This document shows, piece after piece, positions 3,183 through 47,107 of a stretch of 64,000 nucleotides of DNA. The stretch covers positions 64,001-128,000 of the forward strand of contig VMGC01000003.1 in NCBI GenBank assembly GCA_007376385.1. Reading direction: 5' to 3'. The notes beneath the pieces are model-generated. The model had not been told where the DNA came from. It made no database searches and worked only from the letters and a program-made list of their open reading frames with translations. Positions within the stretch are counted from its first letter, which is position 1; each line of letters begins with the position of its first letter. The position numbers and the translations under genes are program-made. The stretch is from Parcubacteria group bacterium Gr01-1014_8 (lineage in GTDB: Bacteria; Patescibacteriota; Minisyncoccia; Phycocordibacterales; UBA2100).

Positions 3183-3256
3183 TCCGCCCGCTTGGACTCG
3201 AACCAAGGACCCTCGAGGTATAAGCTCGATGCTCTAACCAACTGAGCTACGGGCGG
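3183..3256 (-). tRNA. tRNA, anticodon UAU (Ile-like, reads AUA)
   Basis: Hand-folded cloverleaf on the minus strand. Acceptor CCGCCCG/CGGGCGG, D-arm GCTCAGTTGGTTAGAGC, anticodon stem TCGAG/CTCGA with loop CTTATAC, T-arm CTTGG-TTCGAGT-CCAAG, discriminator A. CCA is not encoded. Confidence 0.7.
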
Positions 3257-10159: not shown

Positions 10160-10547
10160 GGGGGTGACTGGTTTCGACAGGAAATTCAATGTGCTTGTGT
10201 GCAAGACGGAAGTGAGAACCTTCCTAAAAAATCTCAAACTCTAAGTGCAAACAAAACTGCACGGGGGGTTCTTTCGCCGATTCAGGCGAAAGACCTCGGC
10301 CTCGTTTTCGCTTAATCGCCCAAACGACCGTTCGTTCAGCGGGTACTCGATACCGTTGACGCGAGCGTCATAACCATCGAGTCCGGTTTCTATTTCACTC
10401 CGAGTAGAGACTTAAAGAAAGAGAGTTAGCCGACGTATGCTTTCGTTCATCTTCTACATACATCGGCGAATCTTCAAGATGAACTACGTCTTGTAGACGC
10501 GCCTGTGCATCATTTCTTGGACTCGAGTTCAATTCTCGACACCTCCA
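10160..10547 (+). ncRNA. ssrA: tmRNA (SsrA), standard one-piece form
   Basis: 5' end GGGGGTGACTGGTTTCGACAGG matches the tmRNA consensus. 3' tRNA-like end reads GGACTCGAGTTCAATTCTCGACACCTCCA (T-arm plus acceptor). A G3:U wobble is present in the acceptor stem. Inferred tag ORF resumes at GCA (10247) and encodes ANKTARGVLSPIQAKDLGLVFA before a stop. Confidence 0.8.
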
Positions 10548-10601
10548 CTCGATTCGCCTCTCGCTAACGCTTGAGGCTCGCTCGTGGCAAGCCACCAGTC
10601 A

Positions 10602-10830: not shown

Positions 10831-11385
10831 CTACAACTCTATTCCCACGGTCACGCTCACCGTTCCATCTCCCGCATCCTGAATGTATGCAGCAAACGTC
10901 CGAGTATCTTTCTTAGCGGCAATAACGTTCGTGCCTGCCATGTTCGCAGAGGCGTCGATTGTCCAACCCTCTGCTTTCAAGCGCGAATTGTAATAGTCGA
11001 GGATGCTCTGCGCCGATGCTTTCGTCGTGTAAACAACCGCAGAGCCAGCCGCACCGGTCGCTGGATTCGTCGAACCGGAATACATAATCGTTGCTCCCGA
11101 ATATACAGGAGGTGCATCTGATGGCCAATTGCTAGGCATGCCTGCACCGCTTCCGACTGTCACGCTTCCTTCACCCGTATTATACGTAACTGTGCCATCA
11201 GAGTTTCTGTCAACATCGGCACCATTCACTCCAGGAAGATAAGCCGAACCAATAGAACCGCCTCGACCTCCCACACCTCCGAAGATGGCTACGAGCAATA
11301 AGACAACTGCTACCCCGCCGACTATCCAGAGTATTTTCTTGTTTTTGCCAGCCGGGGCCGGCGTTGCGCTTGTTCCTTCATCCAT
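10831..11385 (-). CDS. membrane-anchored Gly/Thr/Ser-rich hypothetical protein
   Basis: N-terminal TM (ILWIVGGVAVVLLLVAIFGG) followed by a low-complexity extracellular region. Confidence 0.4.
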   Translation of the reverse strand: MDEGTSATPAPAGKNKKILWIVGGVAVVLLLVAIFGGVGGRGGSIGSAYLPGVNGADVDRNSDGTVTYNTGEGSVTVGSGAGMPSNWPSDAPPVYSGATIMYSGSTNPATGAAGSAVVYTTKASAQSILDYYNSRLKAEGWTIDASANMAGTNVIAAKKDTRTFAAYIQDAGDGTVSVTVGIEL

Positions 11386-14033: not shown

Positions 14034-15337
14034 CGTACTTCACCAAGACTGGGGATCGCAAGACGGCGGCGGGCAGTCCCTCCTTTGAAGAGTTGCGTTG
14101 CGCGTTCTGGCAGGTCACCTCGTTCACCAAGATGAGCGCCAAATTTCATTGCCTCGAAACTTGAGCCCAAAAACACGACATGCTTCCCGTATTTCTCTGA
14201 AAGTTCATCTACGCTTTCGAACACCTGCTTCAAACCCTCCTTTGCATGAACAGCCCCAAAAAGATCGAGCTGAACCGGAGCGTGTTTCTTTAATTTCATG
14301 AGCGTGATGCCGGTTGCACGATAGAACTCTCCTTTTTTGAACACGTTCGGAAAGTATTCTGCGACTGTTCGCACAATATCCTGCGGCAGATTTGTGTGGT
14401 GTGAGAGCTTAATTTCGCATCCATGATATTTGAAATCCTGTGTTTTAAGAAAAAAGAAGATCTCAAGCGTGGAGAGATCCCATTTGCGCACCTTTATACA
14501 TGCATTTTCTATATTTTTTGAGAGTTGAGAAAACACGAATTTTTGGTCGCGGGAAGGAGGCGTAAAAGTTTTCGTCTTGCTGATGGATCGGTATGATTCC
14601 TTGCGTTCGGTTGTTATCTCATATGTCATTTCACCTCGCAGCTCGTGCCAGATCTCAACATATGGTTTAGAAAGCATCGCTGTTACCCACGTCTCTTCTT
14701 TGTTCACGAGATCTTGTATGCTTCTGACCCCGTATTTATTGAGATACTGGGCAGTGTTCGGTCCAATGCCCCATACAGAGCAAATGGGAAGCTTCTCTAA
14801 AAATTTATGTGCATCTCTAAGCGGGATCGCGGTGCATCCGTCCGGCTTCTTCCATTTCGAGCCGATCTTTGCGAGCACTTTCGTCGCCGAAAGTCCGATC
14901 GAGAATGTCATGCCGAGTTCTGTATCAAGTTCGCGTTTTATCTGCAATGCCGTTTCAGGATAATTCATCTTATTCACGCGGCGCATGCCGGTAATATCAG
15001 CAAAGCACTCATCGATTGAATACTCTTCAACTGCCGGCGTATAACGGCGCACGATCTCATACATGCGCTCTGAGAAAAGCGAGTACGTTTCGTAATCGGA
15101 TGGCAAAATGACTGCCTCGGGGCACAATTTTCTTGCTTCTCCTAATTTCATCCCGCGCTTTACGCCCCGCGCCTTCACGTCGTACGTGCATGCTGAGACG
15201 ATGCCGCGTTCTTTTCCCGTAATGACTGGTTTCCCTCTCAGACGCGGATCTTTTGCCACCTCACATGCTGCGAAAAAAGAATCTCCGTCAATATGAAGAA
15301 TGGCATGAGGAAAAGAAGCTGAGATCCCCCATGTCAT
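14030..15337 (-). CDS. dinB: Y-family DNA polymerase IV
   Basis: HIDGDSFFAACE, SIDECFADIT and little-finger region. Lies immediately downstream of lexA. Confidence 0.85.
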   Translation of the reverse strand: MTWGISASFPHAILHIDGDSFFAACEVAKDPRLRGKPVITGKERGIVSACTYDVKARGVKRGMKLGEARKLCPEAVILPSDYETYSLFSERMYEIVRRYTPAVEEYSIDECFADITGMRRVNKMNYPETALQIKRELDTELGMTFSIGLSATKVLAKIGSKWKKPDGCTAIPLRDAHKFLEKLPICSVWGIGPNTAQYLNKYGVRSIQDLVNKEETWVTAMLSKPYVEIWHELRGEMTYEITTERKESYRSISKTKTFTPPSRDQKFVFSQLSKNIENACIKVRKWDLSTLEIFFFLKTQDFKYHGCEIKLSHHTNLPQDIVRTVAEYFPNVFKKGEFYRATGITLMKLKKHAPVQLDLFGAVHAKEGLKQVFESVDELSEKYGKHVVFLGSSFEAMKFGAHLGERGDLPERATQLFKGGTARRRLAIPSLGEVR

Positions 15338-38925: not shown

Positions 38926-39321
38926 TTACCAAATTTCAAACAACGCTTCGCCGCCGATCTTTTCTTTTCTTGCCTCTTTGTCGGTCATGACGCCGCGCGG
39001 AGTCGAAAGTACTAATGAACCGTGGCCATAGCGGACCGAGACTATTTCACGTGCTCCGCGGTAAAGCCTGCGCCCCGGTTTGGACACGCGCTTCACTCCA
39101 TGAATGACGTGTTCCCCCGCAGCGTCATATTTCAAAAGAACATCAATGGTCTTTTTTATCTTCTTTCCCTTCTTCTCAACCGATGTCACATAGCCCGCAT
39201 CCTTCAACTTCTCTGCAATAGCCAATTTGAATGTTGAGAACGGAACAGATACAGACGCTTTTTTTACAGCACCCGCATTCTTAAGCCGCACTATGAGATC
39301 ACCGATGGGATCATTAACCAT
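38926..39321 (-). CDS. rpsH: 30S ribosomal protein S8
   Basis: DPIGDLIVRLKNA signature. Confidence 0.9.
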   Translation of the reverse strand: MVNDPIGDLIVRLKNAGAVKKASVSVPFSTFKLAIAEKLKDAGYVTSVEKKGKKIKKTIDVLLKYDAAGEHVIHGVKRVSKPGRRLYRGAREIVSVRYGHGSLVLSTPRGVMTDKEARKEKIGGEALFEIW

Positions 39322-39473
39322 GTTAGTTTTCGTTAGCGAATGTGAGCTTTTGCGAGCATGAGTTTACAAACAACTTACACCCTGTTAGATCCCGCTGTAG
39401 GCGGGACGACTCGGAACGAGTCGTATTTAACAGGGTAAGGAACTTGTAATTCGCTTTGCTCATAACAATTTCC
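39322..39473 (-). repeat. structured leader element, copy A (upstream of rpsH)
   Basis: 11-bp outer stem CCCTGTTA(G)AT/ATTTAACAGGG encloses two short GC hairpins. It is flanked by sequence shared with copy B and contains a 43-codon frame MSKANYKFLTLLN.... Confidence 0.6.
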
Positions 39474-39659
39474 TTACCAGGACGACTTCTTAATGCCCGG
39501 AATATTTCCTTGAAGCGCTTCCTCTCGGAAACAAATACGGCACATGTTGAAATCACGCATGAATCCGCGCGGGCGGCCGCATTTAAAACATCGGCGCACG
39601 GTTCGCGACGAGAATTTAGGCTTTCGTTGTGCCTTTACTACCATTGATCGTTTAGCCAT
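39474..39659 (-). CDS. rpsN: 30S ribosomal protein S14 type Z (zinc-binding)
   Basis: 61 aa with CxxC...CxxC. Confidence 0.9.
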
Positions 39660-39821
39660 AGAAAATGAAACGCGTACGCAAGGAGTATGATTTGAAGTTC
39701 CTGCATCCGAGGCTTACGCACAAGGATTATGGAAACTCCCACATAAGGCCTGTTTCTCGCAGTCTGCTGCCCTACCAGGGCCGCACTTGCTAAAAAACAA
39801 AGCCCCTTACGAGGCCCGGAA

Positions 39822-39850
39822 AATATACGCGAAATGGCCACCAATGTCAA
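39822..39850 (-). promoter_or_regulatory. sigma70-like promoter inside the ribosomal cluster, upstream of rpsN
   Basis: Sense-strand TTGACA - 17 nt - TATATT, followed by a ~150-nt GC-rich leader ahead of the rpsN ATG. Confidence 0.5.
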
Positions 39851-39865
39851 TTCAACCAAAAACTT

Positions 39866-40402
39866 TTAGTCTCGGAGGGGAAGCCCTAGGTGACGTAGAA
39901 AACTTTCAGCCTCTTTTTTGCTTTTTGCCGTCGTTACAATGGTAACGGCAAGACCAAAAATATCCTTCATGTCCTCGTCAGCAGTTTCAGGAAATACTGT
40001 GTGCTCCTTGAGGCCAATGGAGATATTCCCCATCTCATCAATAGCAGCCGGTTTGATTCCCCTGAAGTCGCGGACACGCGGCAAGACGATATTAACAAGC
40101 TTGTCCATGAATGCGTCCCTGCGGCTTCCCCGAAGCGTTACTTGGTACCCCACTGTGTCGCCTTGGCGCAATTTGAATGTTGCAATCGATTTCTTCGCAG
40201 CTCGCGGCGCCGGAGCTTGGCCGGTGAGTCTCGTGAGCCTGTCTACAATGAGCTCTTTTTTCTTTTTATCGATAGATGCATTGACGCCCGTTGAAACAAC
40301 GATTTTTACCAGCCGCGGCGCTTGCATCGAAGATGTGTATTTGAAATCTCCTTTCAAGGCGGCGAACGCTCCCTTTACTTTGTCTACTGTTGTGTGTGTC
40401 AT
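39866..40402 (-). CDS. rplE: 50S ribosomal protein L5
   Basis: Family similarity and operon position. Confidence 0.9.
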   Translation of the reverse strand: MTHTTVDKVKGAFAALKGDFKYTSSMQAPRLVKIVVSTGVNASIDKKKKELIVDRLTRLTGQAPAPRAAKKSIATFKLRQGDTVGYQVTLRGSRRDAFMDKLVNIVLPRVRDFRGIKPAAIDEMGNISIGLKEHTVFPETADEDMKDIFGLAVTIVTTAKSKKEAESFLRHLGLPLRD

Positions 40403-40405
40403 ATG

Positions 40406-40711
40406 TTAAAGGGCCGAGCCGCTTTTTACAGTAACGCGTTGTCTTGCGCCGTCTTTGCGCACTATCTTTATTCGAGTCGGTTTGCCGCTCTTTGGATCAA
40501 TGAGCATCACATTCGATGCGTGTATGGGGAGAGTCTTGTCGATGATCTGCCCGGAGCGATTGTTAGCCGTTGCTCGTCGGTGCTTTTTGACTATATTAAC
40601 CCCGTCAACTACCACAAGATTCTCGCGAGGAAGTGCACGCACAATAACACCCGAAACTCCGCGGTTCTTTCCCGCTATAACTATCACCTTATCGCCTTTT
40701 TTGAGTTTCAT
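40406..40711 (-). CDS. rplX: 50S ribosomal protein L24
   Basis: KOW motif (GDKVIVIAGKNRG). Confidence 0.9.
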   Translation of the reverse strand: MKLKKGDKVIVIAGKNRGVSGVIVRALPRENLVVVDGVNIVKKHRRATANNRSGQIIDKTLPIHASNVMLIDPKSGKPTRIKIVRKDGARQRVTVKSGSAL

Positions 40712-40849
40712 GTTAGTTTTTCTTAGCGAGTGATAGCGAGCTTAGAAACAACTTACACCCTGTTAAATACGACCTTTTCAAGGTCGTCCCGCCTCCGGCG
40801 GGATTTAACAGGGTTAAGAACTTGTAATTCGCTTTGCTCATAACAATTT
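40712..40849 (-). repeat. structured leader element, copy B (rplN-rplX spacer)
   Basis: Same outer stem CCCTGTTAAAT/ATTTAACAGGG with two inner hairpins. The flanks are about 90% identical to copy A. Confidence 0.6.
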
Positions 40850-41230
40850 CTAAACAACTTCAGGTGCGAGTGAGCCTATCTTTTGGTATCCGCGCTCGAC
40901 AACCTCTCGAGGAATCGGCCCGAAGACTCGGTTCGCTTTCGGTTCCTTCTTATCTTTTCCGGATTTCTCCAGAAGGACAACAGCATTCTCGTCAAAGCGG
41001 ATGTACGAACCGTCTTTGCGGCGGAACGGCTTGGTCTGTCGAACAACGACGGCACGATGAACTTCTTTTTTCTTCACCGCCTTGCGCGGTTGTGCGGTCT
41101 GTATGGAAAGAATGACCTCATCGCCGATAGACGCGTAACGTCGTTTACTTCCGCCGGGAACTTTGAAAATGCGCCCGGTTTGTCCGCCCGAATTATCAGC
41201 TATCTTAACTATGGTCTTGTCTTGGATCAT
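40850..41230 (-). CDS. rplN: 50S ribosomal protein L14
   Basis: MIQDKTIVKIADNSGG start. Confidence 0.9.
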   Translation of the reverse strand: MIQDKTIVKIADNSGGQTGRIFKVPGGSKRRYASIGDEVILSIQTAQPRKAVKKKEVHRAVVVRQTKPFRRKDGSYIRFDENAVVLLEKSGKDKKEPKANRVFGPIPREVVERGYQKIGSLAPEVV

Positions 41231-41235
41231 ATTGC

Positions 41236-41520
41236 TTATTCCTCGTCTTTGAGGGCGGCGTGAAGCCGCTCATTAAGTACAAAGTGCTTATGCTTTGAGA
41301 TGGGCTTCGTCTCTCGTATGGAGACCTTGTCGCCGACCTGGACTGTGTTTCCTGGATTGTGCACGAGATACTTCTTGCTTCGAAGAATGTATTTTTTGTA
41401 CGTCGGGTGCTTCACGTATCTCTCGACAGAGACAGTAACCGTGTCTTTCATTGCCGATTTAACGACAATTCCGACGAGAACTTTTCCTTTTTGTGTTTGT
41501 GGTTCCATAGCGATTTGCAA
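41236..41520 (-). CDS. rpsQ: 30S ribosomal protein S17
   Basis: OB-fold S17 signature (GIVVKSAMKDTVTV). Confidence 0.9.
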   Translation of the reverse strand: MQIAMEPQTQKGKVLVGIVVKSAMKDTVTVSVERYVKHPTYKKYILRSKKYLVHNPGNTVQVGDKVSIRETKPISKHKHFVLNERLHAALKDEE

Positions 41521-41522
41521 TA

Positions 41523-41726
41523 CTACGCAGATTTCTTATTCGCCACAAGCTCTCGTGCACGTATCTCGGTGAGGAGCCTCGCTATATCCTTGCGCACAGT
41601 TCGTCCTTCTTTAACGTTTCGCGAACGGCTCCCGGCCTCACTAAATCTAAAATCGCGAAGCGCAGCGCGCTTTTCGGCAATCTCCTTTTTCAGGTCATCC
41701 ATCGAATATTTTTTTAGGTCAGCCAT
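41523..41726 (-). CDS. rpmC: 50S ribosomal protein L29
   Basis: MADLKK...LRFQ-like helical L29. Confidence 0.8.
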   Translation of the reverse strand: MADLKKYSMDDLKKEIAEKRAALRDFRFSEAGSRSRNVKEGRTVRKDIARLLTEIRARELVANKKSA

Positions 41727-41733
41727 AGAATTA

Positions 41734-42156
41734 TTATCCGCGCGTAACAACTTTCGCTTTTACCGGCAGTTTCGTTCCTGCCTTTCGCAAGGCTTCACGT
41801 GCCTGTTGCTCCGGCGCACCATCGACTTCAAAAATAACTCGGCCAGGGCGAACTTCGACGACATATCCTTGCACGTCCCCTTTTCCTGAACCCATGCCGA
41901 CTTCCGCCGCCTTCTGTGTGAACGGCCTGTCAGGAAAAACGCGTGTCCAAACCTTGGCAGTCTTGCCTGCGGCGCGAGTAAGCGCCCGGCGAGCGGCTTC
42001 TAACTGGTTTGACGTGATACGAGCCTGCGTAATTGCTTTCAATCCAAATGAACCGAACGCAACAGTAACGCCGCGTGTTTCTGGAGCAAGGAGTCGGTTA
42101 GGATTTCTCCTCCCGGTCTGCCATTTTCGAAATTTTGCTTTTTTAGGACTCAACAT
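41734..42156 (-). CDS. rplP: 50S ribosomal protein L16
   Basis: Family similarity and operon position. Confidence 0.9.
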   Translation of the reverse strand: MLSPKKAKFRKWQTGRRNPNRLLAPETRGVTVAFGSFGLKAITQARITSNQLEAARRALTRAAGKTAKVWTRVFPDRPFTQKAAEVGMGSGKGDVQGYVVEVRPGRVIFEVDGAPEQQAREALRKAGTKLPVKAKVVTRG

Positions 42157-42161
42157 ATGGA

Positions 42162-42869
42162 TTATTTACCCGCTGCAGCACGCTGCGACTTGTCATCAGC
42201 AAATATTTCTCCGCGGTATATCCATACTTTAACGCCGATGACACCGTACGGAAGATATGCCTCCTCGCGTGCAAAATCGATGTCTGCGCGAAGCGTCTGA
42301 AGCGGCACGCGTCCTTTCTTTATCTCCTCGGTACGGGACATTTCGGCACCGCCAAGCCTGCCGGCTATACCGATACGAACCCCCTGTACATCCCGATTCG
42401 CCATTACTTTTTCCACTGTCTGCTTCAGCACACGTCGAAACGTCTGACGCTTCTCAAGGCCTTCCGCAACCATATAGGCAACAACCGGCGCTTGAGATTC
42501 AGGGGAACGGACTTCTTCAATGTCGAGTCTCACCGGTCGGGGGGTAGGCTTCTTTGCTCCGGCAGGCGGAATAACCTTTCGTACCACTGTTTCGATTTCT
42601 TTGGTCAATTTCGCGCTCCCCTCGCCACCCCTGCCTATGATGAAACCAGGACGAGATGTCTTTATGAGAACGCGTATCATCTTTTGATTGCGTTCTATTT
42701 CAACCGACGTCACGTAGTGACCTCGAAGTCGTTTCTTCAGGAATCGGCGAATGGCGGAATCCACCATGACATGCTCGCGGTACTGTGCAGGAGTTGCAGC
42801 AAACCAACGCGACTTCCAATCGCGGATGATGCCAAGTCTATGTGCATATGGATGTACTGTGTGTGTCAT
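42162..42869 (-). CDS. rpsC: 30S ribosomal protein S3
   Basis: KH domain and S3 C-terminal domain. Confidence 0.9.
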   Translation of the reverse strand: MTHTVHPYAHRLGIIRDWKSRWFAATPAQYREHVMVDSAIRRFLKKRLRGHYVTSVEIERNQKMIRVLIKTSRPGFIIGRGGEGSAKLTKEIETVVRKVIPPAGAKKPTPRPVRLDIEEVRSPESQAPVVAYMVAEGLEKRQTFRRVLKQTVEKVMANRDVQGVRIGIAGRLGGAEMSRTEEIKKGRVPLQTLRADIDFAREEAYLPYGVIGVKVWIYRGEIFADDKSQRAAAGK

Positions 42870-42872
42870 ATA

Positions 42873-43253
42873 TTATTTGCTCACGGCGACCGCGACTTCT
42901 TTTTTCTTCATTTGTTTCGCTGGTTTTGCAACAATTGTCCCAAGCTCGAGAGATATGATGCTGCGTGTTCGACGAATCCCTGCCGCGCGTCCTCGCGCCA
43001 TCGGTTTAAAGCGACGAATCACAAGGCCTTTGTCCACCGATATGGTCTTCACGAAGAGTGCGCCTGCTGATACGCCCATCCCCCTCGCGTTCGAAACCGC
43101 TGAATCAAGTAGCTTCTTGAACGCCGGCGAAGACTTTTTCGGAAGGAACGAGAGCGCTGTCATAGCGTCGTGCACTGATTTGCCGCGAATAAGGTTCGCA
43201 ACGAGCCGCGTCTTCTGCGGCGATTGTCGATAATTTGTAAGCGTAGCCTTCAT
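42873..43253 (-). CDS. rplV: 50S ribosomal protein L22
   Basis: Family similarity and operon position. Confidence 0.9.
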   Translation of the reverse strand: MKATLTNYRQSPQKTRLVANLIRGKSVHDAMTALSFLPKKSSPAFKKLLDSAVSNARGMGVSAGALFVKTISVDKGLVIRRFKPMARGRAAGIRRTRSIISLELGTIVAKPAKQMKKKEVAVAVSK

Positions 43254-43256
43254 ATG

Positions 43257-43607
43257 TTATTTCTTTGCGGCTTTCGTCGCATCGCCTGACGCTTTTGCAG
43301 ACGTTGCTGCAGCTATCTCGGCCTCCTTTGCCTTCATTTCTATCTCTTTTTGCATCTTTCCACCATGGCGGATGAATTTTGTGGTCGGCGCGAATTCGCC
43401 CAGTCGGTGTCCAACCATATCTTCCGTTATCAAAACCTCGTCAAAATTCTTACCCGTGTGAACCAAAAAAGTGTACCCGACGAATTCCGGCGGGATTTGG
43501 GAAGCACGTGCCCACGTCTTGATACCGCCAGCTGTCGGCTTACGGTTTGAGACTTTCTTCATCAATTTTACGTCCACGTAGGGACCTTTTTTAAGTGAGC
43601 GAGCCAT
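43257..43607 (-). CDS. rpsS: 30S ribosomal protein S19 with Ala/Lys-rich C-terminal extension
   Basis: [12 protein letters not shown] signature. Confidence 0.9.
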
Positions 43608-43696
43608 AATATGCAATTTAAAACCCGCGTCCGCGGGTAGGTCGTAAATGTATAGGAATTACTACCTAGAGTCAAGAAAATTAGCTAATATTATGA

Positions 43697-44545
43697 TTAT
43701 TTTCGCTTTCCGACCTTGCGGCGAGAAACGATAAATACGTTGGAATACTTCTTCGGCCGGCGCGATTTCTGACCCTTGCCAGTCGGTTTCCCCCACATGG
43801 ATTTGGCACGACGCAGGCCTCTGCCCTGTTTGCCTTCACCGCCGCCATGCGGGTGATCAACAGGGTTCATGGCGCTGCCTCGAACTGTAGGGCGAATGCC
43901 GAGCCAGCGCGAACGGCCAGCTTTTCCCAGTACCTGCAAACGATGCTCATCATTCGATGATTCCCCCACTGTCGCCCACGCTGTACCGATGATGCGTCGG
44001 ATTTCGGAAGACGGCATTTTAAGGTGCGTGTAGCCAGCGTCCTGTGCGATGACTTCCGCAAAATTTCCCGCAGAGCGCGCTACCTTGCCGCCCGCACCCG
44101 GCATGAGTTCAATATTGAACACGAATGTTCCTACCGGAATATTAGAGAGCGGAAGTCTGTTTCCACGCTGTATAGGCGCTTGCTCGGAGACAACAAAGGT
44201 CTCGCCGACCTTCATTAATTTCGGGACAATGACATACCTGCGTTCTCCGTCAGCATAGATAGCGAGCCCGATGAATGCGGAGCGATTTGGGTCGTATTCA
44301 ATTGTCGCGATGCGCGCAGGAACATTCTTCTTATTCAATCGAAAATCAACATCTCTCATGAGACGCTTGTGTCCCCCGCCTTTGTGACGAGTTGTGATGC
44401 GGCCGAATGCGTTGCGGCCCGCGGCGCGCTTTTTCCCAGATCGGAGGAATTTCGCAGGCTTGTGCCCTGAGAGCATCGCGCGGAAGTTGACCCGGCTCAT
44501 ACCGCGCTGCCCATCCGTCGTCGGTTTGTAGAATTTCATGCTCAT
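43697..44545 (-). CDS. rplB: 50S ribosomal protein L2
   Basis: Family similarity and operon position. Confidence 0.95.
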   Translation of the reverse strand: MSMKFYKPTTDGQRGMSRVNFRAMLSGHKPAKFLRSGKKRAAGRNAFGRITTRHKGGGHKRLMRDVDFRLNKKNVPARIATIEYDPNRSAFIGLAIYADGERRYVIVPKLMKVGETFVVSEQAPIQRGNRLPLSNIPVGTFVFNIELMPGAGGKVARSAGNFAEVIAQDAGYTHLKMPSSEIRRIIGTAWATVGESSNDEHRLQVLGKAGRSRWLGIRPTVRGSAMNPVDHPHGGGEGKQGRGLRRAKSMWGKPTGKGQKSRRPKKYSNVFIVSRRKVGKRK

Positions 44546-44548
44546 AAA

Positions 44549-44938
44549 TTATGCAATGGTTATTGTTTCGCCTTTTGTAAGGTATACGTATGCTTTCTTT
44601 CCTCCTTGTTTTGTGCCGCGAGCGCCTGTCCTTGAGTTTCGAACCTTCTTCTCAGGAACCGATACTACGCGAACCATGCGAGGTTGTACTTTGTAGTACT
44701 TCAGAACGGCCTCTGATATTTCCCTCTTGGTAGCACGGGATGCCACGTCAAACACATACACGCTCATCAACGCCGCTGCAGTTGCTTTCTCTGTTATCCG
44801 AGGACGCATGAGGATGTGCGAGAGATCAGTGTTACTTTTGCTCTCACTTCGGCGAGTTATTTGGCTCGCAGGTGCGGCAACAGAAAGCACGTCCGCCTTC
44901 GGTTCCGTCTTTGGTTTTCTGCTGAAAAGTGCATTCAT
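44549..44938 (-). CDS. rplW: 50S ribosomal protein L23 (with N-terminal extension, or start at an internal Met)
   Basis: RPRITEKA...L23 core. The true start codon is uncertain. Confidence 0.85.
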   Translation of the reverse strand: MNALFSRKPKTEPKADVLSVAAPASQITRRSESKSNTDLSHILMRPRITEKATAAALMSVYVFDVASRATKREISEAVLKYYKVQPRMVRVVSVPEKKVRNSRTGARGTKQGGKKAYVYLTKGETITIA

Positions 44939-44946
44939 AAATATTT

Positions 44947-45702
44947 TTATTGGTCACCTTTTTCCACCTCGCGCACTGACGTTACACTCGCTTTTGCTCG
45001 CTTCGTTTTTGCAGGCGCCTTCTTCTCGTCTTTCTTTTGTTCCCCAAAACGATGCGCAAGAATTGCAACAGCTGCCTCTGGATTCTCTATCACGAGGTAT
45101 GAGTTTCTCATAACAGACACCGGATTCAGTTCGCGCACTGCCCTGCATTCGATGTTTGCGATGTTGCGAAAACTTTTCACCGATGCTTCGCGCGGGTCAG
45201 CAAGGGCAACGAGCGCCGCGTTCCGTGTCTTTTCGTGCATGGCATTAAAACCAAGCGCCTTTCCGAGCGAGGCGATCGCTTTCTTTGCGAGGGCGGTCTT
45301 CGGCGCATCGATCCCGAATGAATCAACGAACACAACTTCGCCACTCTTCAATTTTCGAGAAAGCGCCATTGCGAGCGCTTTGATGCGCATCTTTCTCGGG
45401 ATCTCGCGGGCATATGACTTTTCATTGCGAGGGCCGTGCGTCACTCCACCGCCGCGCCATATCGGCGAGCGTATAGAACCGTGACGAGCGCGGCCAGTTC
45501 CCTTTTGCTGCCATGGTTTTTTGCCGCCGCCCCGTACCTCGCCGCGCTCCTTTACGTGCGCGACCGGTGTGCGAGCATTTGAAAGCATAGATGTCACGAC
45601 CTGATGCATCAGCGAATCATTCCACGCAACATCAAAGACACGCTCTGGCAATTCCACCGAGCCTGACTTTTTTCCTTGTGTGTTGTATACGTCGTATTTC
45701 AT
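44947..45702 (-). CDS. rplD: 50S ribosomal protein L4
   Basis: Family similarity and operon position. Confidence 0.9.
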   Translation of the reverse strand: MKYDVYNTQGKKSGSVELPERVFDVAWNDSLMHQVVTSMLSNARTPVAHVKERGEVRGGGKKPWQQKGTGRARHGSIRSPIWRGGGVTHGPRNEKSYAREIPRKMRIKALAMALSRKLKSGEVVFVDSFGIDAPKTALAKKAIASLGKALGFNAMHEKTRNAALVALADPREASVKSFRNIANIECRAVRELNPVSVMRNSYLVIENPEAAVAILAHRFGEQKKDEKKAPAKTKRAKASVTSVREVEKGDQ

Positions 45703-45707
45703 ATAAT

Positions 45708-46316
45708 TTAGCCTCGGATCTCAACCAGCGTGCCGGGCCTTCCTGGCACGGCACCTGAGATAACAAGAGTATTGGATCCAGCATCAACCTGCAAAACACG
45801 CAGATTCCTCACGGTTATTCGATCGCCTCCCATGCGGCCGGCCATTCGCATCCCTTTCACCACGCGTCCGCCGGCACGACCGCCGCCTCCGATTGAACCC
45901 GGAGAACGCTCTTTGTTTTTTTGACCGTGCGAGCGAGGGCCTCCCTTAAAACCGTGCCTCTTCACGACACCTTGAAAACCCTTTCCTTTTGATATCGCGG
46001 ACACTTCAACAATATCGCCCGGTGCAAACACTGAGACATTTATTGTCGCGCCCCTTTCCATTGTTTCCGCTCCTTTAAATTCTCGGGCGTATCGGAAATT
46101 TCCGAGATCTTTGAAGTGCCCTTGTACCGCCTTGCTCAGATTCTTCTGTTTCCGGTCGCCGAAGCCAAATTGCACGGCCGCGTAGCCATCCTTTTCAACA
46201 CTTTTAGCCTGAGTCACTGTGAGTGGCCCAGCAGTAATGATGGTCGCAGCAGCAACTGCGCCATCTTCATTGAAGATCTGGGTCATTCGACCCTTAGTTC
46301 CGAGCATGAATTTCAT
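45708..46316 (-). CDS. rplC: 50S ribosomal protein L3
   Basis: Family similarity. First gene of the cluster. Confidence 0.9.
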   Translation of the reverse strand: MKFMLGTKGRMTQIFNEDGAVAAATIITAGPLTVTQAKSVEKDGYAAVQFGFGDRKQKNLSKAVQGHFKDLGNFRYAREFKGAETMERGATINVSVFAPGDIVEVSAISKGKGFQGVVKRHGFKGGPRSHGQKNKERSPGSIGGGGRAGGRVVKGMRMAGRMGGDRITVRNLRVLQVDAGSNTLVISGAVPGRPGTLVEIRG

Positions 46317-46420
46317 GTTAGAGATTCTTAGCGAGTTACTACGAGCTTAGAAGCTCTTACACCCTGTTAAATGCAACTCTTCCGAGGTTGCCCCGCCTCT
46401 GGCGGGATTTAACAGGGTTG
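46317..46420 (-). repeat. structured leader element, copy C (5' leader of rplC)
   Basis: Outer stem CCCTGTTAAAT/ATTTAACAGGG. Its inner hairpin 2 uses a different but still complementary sequence (GCAAC/GTTGC) from copy B (ACGACC/GGTCGT). Confidence 0.6.
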
Positions 46421-46466
46421 TGAAAACTATAGTCGTCCTCGCTTCGCTTCGACCCCTTAGTTTTCA

Positions 46467-46497
46467 ACAAAAAACCGCGCCACTGGCGCGGATGGTT
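46467..46497 (-). terminator. rho-independent terminator upstream of the rplC leader
   Basis: Sense strand ccgcgccagtggcgcgg followed by TTTTTTG. It ends transcription from the accessory genes upstream. Confidence 0.6.
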
Positions 46498-46672
46498 CAT
46501 CCGAGTCCAGTGGTCCCGTATTGGGACATGGGTGACCCGTGAGATGGCGGCCTTGCGGCCTATCTCATGGGTTCGCGGCACTATACACCCCATGAGATAA
46601 CAAGTCAAAAACTTCTCGTACAGAACAGATTTTCTATCTCACGGGGTACACGAGGAGTGTACGGGATGCAAA

Positions 46673-47107
46673 CTAACTTGTTGCAGGGGGATTGTCGGCA
46701 GCGGACGCCAGCGAAGCGTTTTCCTTTCTGTGATGAATATCGTAGAGATGTTTCAAGAGCACCATGGTAAGCGCCAACGAGACCAAAATGACGCCATATA
46801 ACGCAGGCATGGACAGCTGTCCTATCGGTCCTGCGGATGACTGGAAGCTGGAAGGAACAAACGTTTGTTCCGGAAGGAAATCTTCCGCGACTCCCTGTTT
46901 CTCTGCTTCGCCTGCAAGCGACTCAACTAAAACGGCAAGTTCGCTCTCAGATAGTTCGCTTGAACGCGGATCACTCAATAAAGATGCGCGTATTTCATCG
47001 CGAAGCAGTACTGAATCATCCGCTTGCGCAAAAACACTTATCGGGAGAACGAGCGCTCCTGCAAACAAAATCACTAGTGCAGTTTTTTTAATTGAATGCA
47101 CGTTCAT
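46673..47107 (-). CDS. hypothetical exported/membrane-anchored protein
   Basis: Signal peptide and C-terminal TM helix. No recognisable domain. Confidence 0.4.
   Translation of the reverse strand: MNVHSIKKTALVILFAGALVLPISVFAQADDSVLLRDEIRASLLSDPRSSELSESELAVLVESLAGEAEKQGVAEDFLPEQTFVPSSFQSSAGPIGQLSMPALYGVILVSLALTMVLLKHLYDIHHRKENASLASAADNPPATS

Follow-up and report, generated by a model that had tools for sequence, protein, structure and literature searches.

The Neisseria REP2 and Borrelia IR-A/IR-B repeats are 120-180 bp long, lack classical terminal inverted repeats, contain internal stem-loops, and lie directly 5' of same-strand open reading frames (ORFs), with expression signals and an ATG (PMC3184786). 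In position and working they are the best match for an element that we analysed in a 64,000-nt stretch of contig VMGC01000003.1 from Parcubacteria group bacterium Gr01-1014_8, a tiny inhabitant of groundwater (positions 64,001-128,000; "the window"), which carries three copies, all on the minus (sense) strand, immediately before the ribosomal protein (r-protein) genes rplC, rplX and rpsH. The overall best explanation of these elements, and in our judgement a probable one, is that they are members of a mosaic repeat, palindromic and multi-copy, that forms intergenic cassettes in Kaiserbacteria-like Parcubacteria, within the candidate phyla radiation (CPR). That they represent a mosaic repeat rather than a specific r-protein leader can be said with high confidence, and it is likely that the central palindrome of the cassette is an independent unit that flips at the level of DNA. 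On our best reading of the sequences, the repeat may have been tolerated or co-opted by its host, where it would relay ribosomes from one gene to the next.

REP2 repeats carry a promoter and a Shine-Dalgarno (SD) site and precede the first genes of a virulence regulon, whereas the cassette, which has the same-strand placement of REP2 including the start region, shows no detectable promoter and no SD site, in housekeeping operons lies mostly between coupled genes, has a central palindrome that can be exchanged, and is not similar to these repeats in sequence. The ERIC/IRU and Correia (NEMIS) elements resemble it as imperfect palindromes of ~100-160 bp that sit in transcribed intergenic stretches, are co-transcribed, fold in mRNA, can carry short ORFs, include internal-insertion variants, and leave filled and empty sites among relatives (PMC3184786, PMC2759123). 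However, they occur in both orientations and often at the 3' ends of genes, and Correia elements show TA duplications as well as terminal inverted repeats, whereas 95% of cassettes are co-oriented with their genes and end at start codons, with no target-site duplication seen. REP, BIME and REPIN elements are likewise small extragenic palindromes, arranged in mosaics, multi-copy, without a transposase of their own and forming hairpins at the DNA level, in which IS elements and other repeats nest (PMC3184786; PMC3116915), and the palindromic units of the cassette also form mosaics. REPs, however, are units of 20-40 nt that are specific to a species and bear a GTAG or CGTC tag (PMC3733652), moved by RAYT transposases; we found no such tag beside the cores of the repeat and no RAYT-like family recurring in the 8 kb around them. 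A REPIN, which consists of two inverted copies of one REP, is ruled out by the different sequences of the two inner hairpins. [quoted passage not shown] Since ~97% of MITE clusters are genus-specific (PMC11602168), a stem common to at least five phyla, as described below, is unusual; this breadth hints at a conserved enzyme or a widely shared mobile system. Keyword searches of the literature found no earlier description of the repeat, and a sequence search gave only unrelated primers.

Three copies in a ribosomal protein operon

The operon lies on the minus strand in the order rplC-rplD-rplW-rplB-rpsS-rplV-rpsC-rplP-rpmC-rpsQ-rplN-rplX-rplE-rpsN-rpsH, and by the L24 protein, which is 100% identical to one from Parcubacteria group bacterium Gr01-1014_8, the closest relatives are Candidatus Kaiserbacteria (~70-78% identity). 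An earlier, sequence-only reading had placed structured elements before rplC, rplX and rpsH on the sense strand, each with an 11-bp outer stem around two hairpins that differ between copies and yet stay paired. All of this held. A repeat search of the window returned one 69-nt family with three copies, and the outer stem proved to run 3-4 bp past its 11 bp, with one A·C mismatch on the sense strand of the rpsH copy (ATCTAACAGGG) that is a G·T pair on the opposite strand. The flanks of the copies are hairpins in their own right, here called HP1 (5') and HP3 (3'), on either side of a Y-shaped central palindrome (the Y core). Parts were located with nhmmer for the flanks and with a covariance model (CM) for the core; positions are those of the window:

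46358..46421, minus strand: Y-shaped central palindrome of the rplC copy (CM 38.6 and 36.4 bits on the two strands)
46314..46363, minus strand: HP3 of the rplC copy, ending ...CTAAC-ATG (nhmmer E 3.7e-11; rplC start codon 46316-46314)
40812..40854, minus strand: HP1 of the rplX copy, beginning at the rplN stop TAG, with a restart ATG at 40841 (nhmmer E 1e-14)
40754..40817, minus strand: Y-shaped central palindrome of the rplX copy (CM 49.9 bits)
40709..40759, minus strand: HP3 of the rplX copy, ending ...AAC TAA C ATG (nhmmer E 1.1e-15; rplX start 40711-40709)
40713..40841, minus strand: bridging ORF of the rplX copy, 42 aa (MSKANYKFLTLLNPAGGG...AKKN), whose stop ends 1 nt before the rplX ATG
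39434..39476, minus strand: HP1 of the rpsH copy, beginning at the rpsN stop TAA, with a restart ATG at 39463 (nhmmer E 1.2e-13)
39376..39439, plus strand: Y-shaped palindrome of the rpsH copy, inverted ("flop"; CM 48.6 bits on plus versus 35.7 on minus)
39319..39381, minus strand: HP3 of the rpsH copy, ending ...AAC TAA C ATG (nhmmer E 1e-07; rpsH start 39321-39319)
39323..39463, minus strand: bridging ORF of the rpsH copy, 46 aa, whose stop ends 1 nt before the rpsH ATG
46588..46646, minus strand: weak fourth related palindrome (CCCCGTGAGATA...TATCTCATGGGG; CM match at 46584-46650, 20.5 bits, E 0.004)

In the rplC core the outer stem CCCTGTTAAAT/ATTTAACAGGG, with a 3-bp extension, encloses the inner hairpins CCCGCC/GGCGGG and CAACCTC/GAGTTG, while the rplX core encloses CCCGCC/GGCGGG and ACGACCTT/AAGGTCGT. 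The 58-nt core of the rpsH copy is 84% and 78% identical to the reverse complements of the rplX and rplC cores, respectively, and just 65% identical to the rplX core in direct alignment. Its flanks keep their orientation, so what had been described as a swapped hairpin order is in fact a true inversion of the core. The 48-nt 5' flanks of the rpsH and rplX copies are 96% identical, and the 3' flanks of the rplX and rplC copies 83%; the HP3 of rpsH is 12 nt longer than that of rplX, and the rplC copy has neither a 5' flank nor an ATG-started ORF.

The half-site CCCTGTTAAAT, with at most one mismatch, occurs six times in the 64 kb, always inside the three elements, against a chance expectation of 0.81 (six were reached in 0/100 shuffles). 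Run over the whole window with filters off, the CM gave no copies beyond the three except the weak related palindrome, and profile hidden Markov models (HMMs) of the flanks gave no further matches there. Each copy folds far better than its shuffles on the sense strand (z -4.7 to -6.5) and equally well on the antisense strand (z -4.5 to -7.4). At gathering threshold Rfam identified only tmRNA and tRNA elsewhere in the window and no family at the copies, and a permissive scan of 39000-47000 gave a single chance-level match. No sigma-70-like promoter lies within the three cassettes. TAAGTT and TTAACA were considered as -10 and -35 boxes and were ruled out by their spacing. The weak fourth palindrome surrounds the -35 box of a promoter 5' of rplC; related outer stems occur in the cassettes L140 and L148, and another palindrome in the same style lies at 46535-46572.

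An oriented cassette at stop-to-start junctions

The cassette consists of three hairpin modules: HP1, an exchangeable middle and HP3. HP1 opens at the stop codon of the upstream gene and presents an ATG 8-13 nt after that stop, and HP3 ends 0-3 nt ahead of the ATG of the downstream, same-strand gene. A scan of metagenomes with a 5'-flank pattern yielded 115 stretches, and the cassette occupies >100 sites in Kaiserbacteria-like genomes, clustering up to four within 7 kb. Among unique HP3 matches, 76/80 (95%) lie directly 5' of a same-strand ORF that begins with ATG and spans 50 aa or more. On the other side, a stop codon stands 8-13 nt 5' of the HP1 ATG in ~90% of cassettes, and by a crude test it terminates a long ORF in 52 of 83. 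HP1 covaries (TTGT/ACAA, CTGT/ACAG, ATGT/ACAT), and an HP3-like flank motif (GAGCGTAGCGA / TCGCTACGCTC) recurs in distant Patescibacteria classes, which suggests long retention. The two ends of the whole cassette are only weakly similar to each other. The 3-4 nt that adjoin the core are inverted, not direct. At rpsN-rpsH the overlap segment TGGTAA is present on both sides of the cassette, but it is required by the genes anyway.

The middle is always closed by CCC...GGG and may be the Y core, CCCGCCTAAAT..., CCCAGCACC...GGTGCTGGG, a simple hairpin such as CCCAGCACCTTTCGCGAAAGGTGCTGGG, or an insert of >100 nt; an extra hairpin module may also occur inside HP3 or the 3' flank. One and the same junction (e.g. 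5' of nusA, rpsK or rplX) holds different middles in different relatives, and on the related contig L111 the same flanks with different middles are found 5' of rpsK, 3' of rpsD and 5' of a 459-aa gene. Where the middle is a Y core, its two orientations, flip and flop, occur 12 and 9 times.

By Pfam, the downstream genes encode L24 (six cassettes), NusA (four), GroEL, L6, S11 and S18 (three each), and L22, S4, L15, L29 and MetK (two each), besides L2 and single cases such as DnaB and a GatA-like amidase. R-proteins, with at least 10 different genes, make up at least 35% of these, far above their share of a genome. Because small repeats normally shun regions of essential genes ("repeat deserts", PMC3184786), such a bias towards translation genes is unusual. 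The placement rules of this repeat are unusual: stop-to-start insertion, 95% of copies on the gene strand, and concentration in translation-apparatus operons that small repeats usually avoid.

Relatives show the same junctions filled and empty. The rplN and rplX genes overlap by ATGA in L120 and are 7 nt apart in L121, 137 nt apart in the window and 187 nt apart in L123; rpsN and rpsH overlap by ATGGTAA in L121 and L122 and are separated by 152 nt in the window. Junctions that are empty in some relatives are filled in L123 and others. The core in the rplC leader is present in the window, in L122, in L123 with a variant stem and in the distant L001, and absent from L120 and L121. L123 carries one stem variant (CCCGCCCAAAT/ATTTAGGCGGG) at three sites, so copies within one genome evolve together. 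The second possibility raised by the sequence-only reading, a structured repeat that has colonised the operon, is thus borne out by the >100 sites before unrelated genes, by orthologous junctions that are empty in relatives, and by the presence of the core in at least five phyla. That reading had also named a generic repeat scattered at random as the outcome that would speak against its proposal of a leader family: generic the repeat is, and its positions are far from random.

Other inserts are found at operon junctions of these relatives. An unrelated family of hairpin repeats (AGTCATAAGTCAT... / GTATCAAGTA...) lies at S19-L22, S14-S8, SecY-gmk and rpsK-rpsD junctions (L120:7533-7631, 11219-11328 and 14974-15069; L111 about 820-885), so the clade seems to acquire hairpin inserts at its operon junctions quite generally. 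At rplN-rplX of L122 (L122:9917-10021), a 59-nt hairpin insert lies between the diverged copies of a 21-nt duplication that covers the first seven rplX codons (ATGAAGCTCAAGAAAGGAGAC ... ATGAAATTACGCAAAGGAGAC); this looks like an old target duplication from a different insertion. In L121 (L121:11120-12895) the r-protein operon is interrupted between rplE and rpsN by a gene of the GmrSD family (type IV restriction), whose flanks are long and structured.

The Y-shaped core across phyla

A scan of one genome per species with the pattern CCCTGTTARAT-N24-50-ATYTAACAGGG matched at least 119 stretches and placed the core in at least five phyla, with multiple copies in several genomes: Patescibacteria, Desulfobacterota, WOR-3, Omnitrophota and Bacteroidota. 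Among the matches listed, record titles name ~45 Patescibacteria, 38 Desulfobacterota, 17 WOR-3/Stahlbacteria, 8 Omnitrophota and 4 Bacteroidota, plus singles, and ~115/131 of the listed matches lie outside long ORFs. Nested cores occur in L046 and L097 and tandem cores in L013. Since the core is found on its own in these phyla, in either orientation, nested and in tandem, it appears to spread and rearrange at the DNA level.

A perfect Y, that is a three-way junction, can be formed by 74 of 121 unique cores, against 28 of 2420 with shuffled interiors. In a model-based alignment, which contains both strands of many elements and was fitted to the model, each of the 14 inner-hairpin pairs has changes in both partners, pairing holds in 98-99% of cells (37-48% in a slid-partner control), and double changes number 681 versus 181 in shuffles. 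The stem extension adds 3-4 covarying pairs (TCA/TGA, TTA/TAA, CTG/CAG, TCG/CGA). Inner pairs comprise 501 G-C, 358 A-T and 11 G·T (11/870, 1.3%), and triloops, which often read C-GAA-G or the complement of this, account for 109 of 148 loops. The low G·T content and the triloops argue that the palindrome is maintained at the DNA level and not as a single-strand-selected RNA. The apparent invariance of the outer stem is owed in part to the exact-match search pattern. The CM picks up core-like copies that this pattern misses (L096:2846-2909, L003:4434-4505, L166:1886-1949, L020:1690-1747, L118:1969-2020, L040:7848-7899, L051:7329-7371), so true copy number and outer-stem variety exceed the figures of the pattern scan.

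In architecture the Y core is identical to the inverted terminal repeat of the parvovirus AAV, in which an outer palindrome A-A' surrounds B-B' and C-C' to give a T or Y shape with flip and flop forms. The AAV repeat, however, is 125-145 nt long, forms the ends of a linear single-stranded DNA genome and is inverted by hairpin-primed replication and Rep nicking, whereas the Y core measures 56-66 nt, lies inside bacterial chromosomes and has no Rep; the likeness is one of geometry and inversion only. Integron attC sites, with the core consensus 5'-RYYYAAC...GTTRRRY-3', are likewise folded single-strand substrates with a conserved stem around a variable, sometimes branched interior, and GTTAAAT and ATTTAAC of the Y core fit these consensus sequences. 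Identity with attC is nonetheless ruled out: the order is reversed (5'-GTTAAAT...ATTTAAC-3'), the stem pairs perfectly and leaves no base extrahelical, and there is no integrase or cassette array. A Xer/dif site was rejected as well, given that 34 bp separate the arms, which point outward, and that the flanks hold no conserved second arm, while dif has two 11-bp arms around a 6-8-bp centre. Viral origin was provisionally set aside, with only three viral contigs carrying the core.

Several lineages embed the core or its termini in units of their own. In WOR-3/Stahlbacteria a variant has the 11-nt termini of the core around a conserved 40-nt interior without hairpins, flanked by CTGTGG direct repeats (L014, L018 [L018:5364-5425], L022, L028, L052, L057, L064, L066, L085, L090, L113); present several times per genome, it is a distinct class with the termini alone in common with the Y core. 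In Desulfobacterales a 48-nt Y core sits inside a larger conserved repeat that extends ~45 nt to the left and at least 60 nt to the right, including GCGACGTAC...GTACGCC (L017, L019, L026, L036, L037, L073, L076, L092, L101, L117). At L016:2515-2660 a Y core has DnaA-box-like TTATCCACA motifs on both sides (three copies), and from these flanks it may lie in a replication origin region.

Translation, regulation and rival explanations

Shine-Dalgarno motifs are found before no gene of the window. A TATAnT (-10) box stands 6-12 nt 5' of the ATG at first genes, a spacing that suggests leaderless mRNAs for these, and internal genes abut or overlap. A survey reports the anti-SD motif in only 48% of Parcubacteria (PMC9297842). 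How internal genes start translation in Parcubacteria that lack it is a question made testable by a portable insert that combines a restart ATG and a masked AUG with stops in all three frames.

The sequence-only reading had noted that two copies share flanks and an ORF that stops 1 nt before the next ATG, and had considered coupled translation of a leader peptide. Both observations stand for the rplX and rpsH copies. Across 77 non-redundant cassettes, however, the bridging ORF ends -4 to +6 nt from the next ATG in 29 (38%), where one-third is expected by frame (p=0.24), so that it is no family rule, and we discarded it as a conserved feature. What survives of the coupling idea are the stops and start-codon pairing of HP3, which fit a stop-and-restart relay. 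Stops in all three frames occur in 74% of unique HP3 copies versus 25% of composition-matched shuffles, with conserved TAA peaks at about -44, -33, -14 and -4 relative to the ATG. The HP3 consensus fold has 17 pairs, eight with compensatory changes, and its four TAA triplets pair mutually, leaving invariant A·A mismatches, so pairing has been given up to keep TAA on the sense strand. The retention of TAA in both arms is a sense-strand feature and points to translation. The A and U of the start codon are paired in the HP3 base in 22/22 sequences, and the 14 nt preceding the ATG are 54% A. MazF-type cleavage at ACA before the AUG was considered and set aside, as ACA is not kept in relatives. Rickettsia palindromic elements (RPEs) are similar in that they measure ~100-150 bp, inhabit a reduced genome, are translatable, and are tolerated in or near essential genes, but they insert in frame within coding sequences and become part of the protein, while the cassette occupies the gap from a stop to a start codon and has no conserved ORF.

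From these features we propose, tentatively and as something short of probable, that the cassette acts as a ribosome relay. It would be co-transcribed with the operon; a ribosome finishing the upstream gene would restart at the HP1 ATG and, while translating, melt the cassette hairpins; it would halt at one of the four HP3 TAAs, whichever its frame; this halt would free the AUG otherwise paired in the HP3 base, together with the A-rich stretch before it; and the ribosome would then restart on the downstream gene. Such a relay would keep translation of the two genes coupled however long the central palindrome is and whichever way it faces, and so would explain why an insert of 105-190 nt is tolerated at otherwise overlapping junctions in a genome without SD sites, and why the middle varies freely in length and orientation. 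A stronger version, in which the cassette is a dedicated relay module that offers Parcubacteria lacking SD sites a portable means of expressing internal genes, and in which its centre is an undescribed cross-phylum flip/flop Y palindrome whose spread is driven by a conserved enzyme, of the host or of a mobile element, that recognises the invariant 11-bp stem, seems to us unlikely.

Several points weigh against the interpretation of a co-opted mobile repeat that relays ribosomes. The rplC copy follows a terminator-like hairpin and has neither an HP1 ATG nor an upstream gene to relay from, so that the relay as stated cannot explain it. The HP1 ATG was included in the search pattern and its conservation is thus no independent result. 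The conserved TAA and A·A motifs could be structural or protein-binding rather than stop codons. An all-against-all BLASTP comparison of ORFs at the 119 loci (8 kb sampled around each copy) revealed no recurring transposase or recombinase, and no target-site duplication or autonomous partner was found there, so we infer mobility from the distribution alone. Finally, the cassette is found at rplN-rplX, at rpsM-rpsK and 5' of nusA in many relatives, and shared junctions of this kind also fit old vertical inheritance with turnover of the middle module.

The first proposal of the sequence-only reading was autoregulation by r-proteins. Worked out on the pattern of the S10 and spc operons of E. coli, this would have L3 (or L4), L24 and S8 repress translation, each by binding to its own copy; in a variant, the leader peptide would act in attenuation. 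Position directly 5' of rplC, rplX and rpsH, strong structure, and the short ORF in two copies all speak for it. We regard it as largely refuted and highly improbable, given that NusA, GroEL, MetK, DnaB and many other genes have this cassette in front of them, that one of the three copies has its core inverted and the core is free in orientation across the family, that L120, L121 and L122 have overlapping or empty junctions at rplN-rplX or rpsN-rpsH, that the bridging ORF is not conserved, and that none of the r-protein leaders in Rfam matches. Other gaps of the operon hold separate, conserved leaders, each a promoter plus a hairpin, that are better candidates for regulation. Operon specificity, orthologous conservation, and sense-RNA selection with a fixed orientation and tolerance of G·U, as seen in r-protein leaders, are all absent. 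The strand comparison is explicit on the last point: the antisense strand folds better in 46/75 cassettes (mean difference 1.85 kcal/mol, p=0.003) and the sense strand shows no excess of G·U pairs, so we rejected selection on sense-RNA structure. The case removes a false positive, in which strong structure and compensatory changes before r-protein genes go with no r-protein sensor, and offers practical marks by which a DNA palindrome can be told from a selected RNA: scarce G·T, triloops, orientation-free cores, and equal folding of both strands.

The same strand comparison bears on an element for RNA processing or stability, in which cuts by RNase III or RNase E/Y, or a block to exonucleases, would set the stabilities of segments of the polycistronic mRNA, and a cut at the HP3 base might yield an mRNA starting near the AUG, suited to leaderless-type translation. 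Long stable hairpins in transcribed spacers, an HP3 end 0-3 nt from the AUG in 95%, first genes that look leaderless, and the precedent of ERIC and Correia repeats, which are known to act in this way (PMC3184786), speak for the idea; we think it improbable, because sense structure is not favoured over antisense, an orientation-free core speaks against a specific RNA recognition site, and the sense-specific three-frame TAAs are left unexplained. A purely selfish MITE- or REP-like palindromic repeat, surviving in tiny operon spacers only where purifying selection finds its orientation and position harmless, seems to us rather unlikely. Its stops, ATG and A-rich end would render the parasite harmless at no benefit to the host, and its molecular mechanism would be the same as that of the cassette interpretation favoured above, the difference being who benefits. 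Junctions filled and empty among relatives, multiple copies per genome and per operon, middle modules that differ at orthologous sites, the DNA-level palindrome signature, and the occupation of other junctions in L120 by unrelated hairpin families all agree with it; the 95% co-orientation with genes, the strong bias to translation-apparatus genes and the HP3-like motif in distant Patescibacteria classes do not. We consider decidedly improbable a host function at the DNA level, with the invariant 11-bp stem as the binding or cleavage site of gyrase (as for REP/BIME), a Xer-type recombinase or a nucleoid protein in highly transcribed operons. An outer stem that is invariant around a free yet paired interior, nearly exclusive Watson-Crick pairing with mostly triloops, and the cross-phylum distribution would suit such a site, and TGTTAAAT equals the outer 8 bp of the XerD arm of E. 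coli dif, a match noticed after the fact. On the other hand, no XerC-like arm or 6-8-bp central region lies beside this motif, the stem invariance is partly a product of exact matching, Y cores are replaceable by unrelated hairpins in cassettes, and no associated protein was found at the 119 loci.

Other gaps and features of the operon

The remaining long gaps of the operon, 5' of rplC and at rplB-rpsS and rplE-rpsN, each contain a good sigma-70 promoter and, after it, a hairpin that resembles a terminator. Just upstream of the rplC cassette (46465-46608, minus strand), the promoter TTGACT-17-TATAGT precedes ~100 nt of structured RNA and a GC hairpin with a T-run (46491-46475). Its motif GTCCCnATACGGGACCACTGG is kept in L120-L123, and Rfam has no match for the leader. 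It looks like an operon leader of the transcription-attenuator type, and r-protein feedback is more plausibly sought here than in the three cassettes.

The rplE-rpsN gap (39661-39865, minus strand) has a near-consensus promoter, TTGACA-17-TATATT, a terminator-like hairpin at 39817-39800 and a leader of ~140 nt ahead of rpsN; its sequence and layout are kept in L120-L123, again with no Rfam match. In the rplB-rpsS gap (43606-43700, minus strand), the hairpin ACCCGCGGACGCGGGT plus TTTAAATT comes after an internal promoter, TTGACT-17-TACATT, and directly before rpsS, and L120, L121 and L123 have a similar hairpin, CCCGC...GCGGG, in this gap. The rpsJ (S10) gene is not adjacent to rplC in this lineage: L123:34-4309 places it ~4 kb upstream, with three unrelated genes between. 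A small membrane-type ORF (46673-47107) lies ahead of the rplC leader in the window, which also carries an ordinary tmRNA gene (139 bits; 10160-10550) and a tRNA gene (3183-3256), both unrelated to the repeats.

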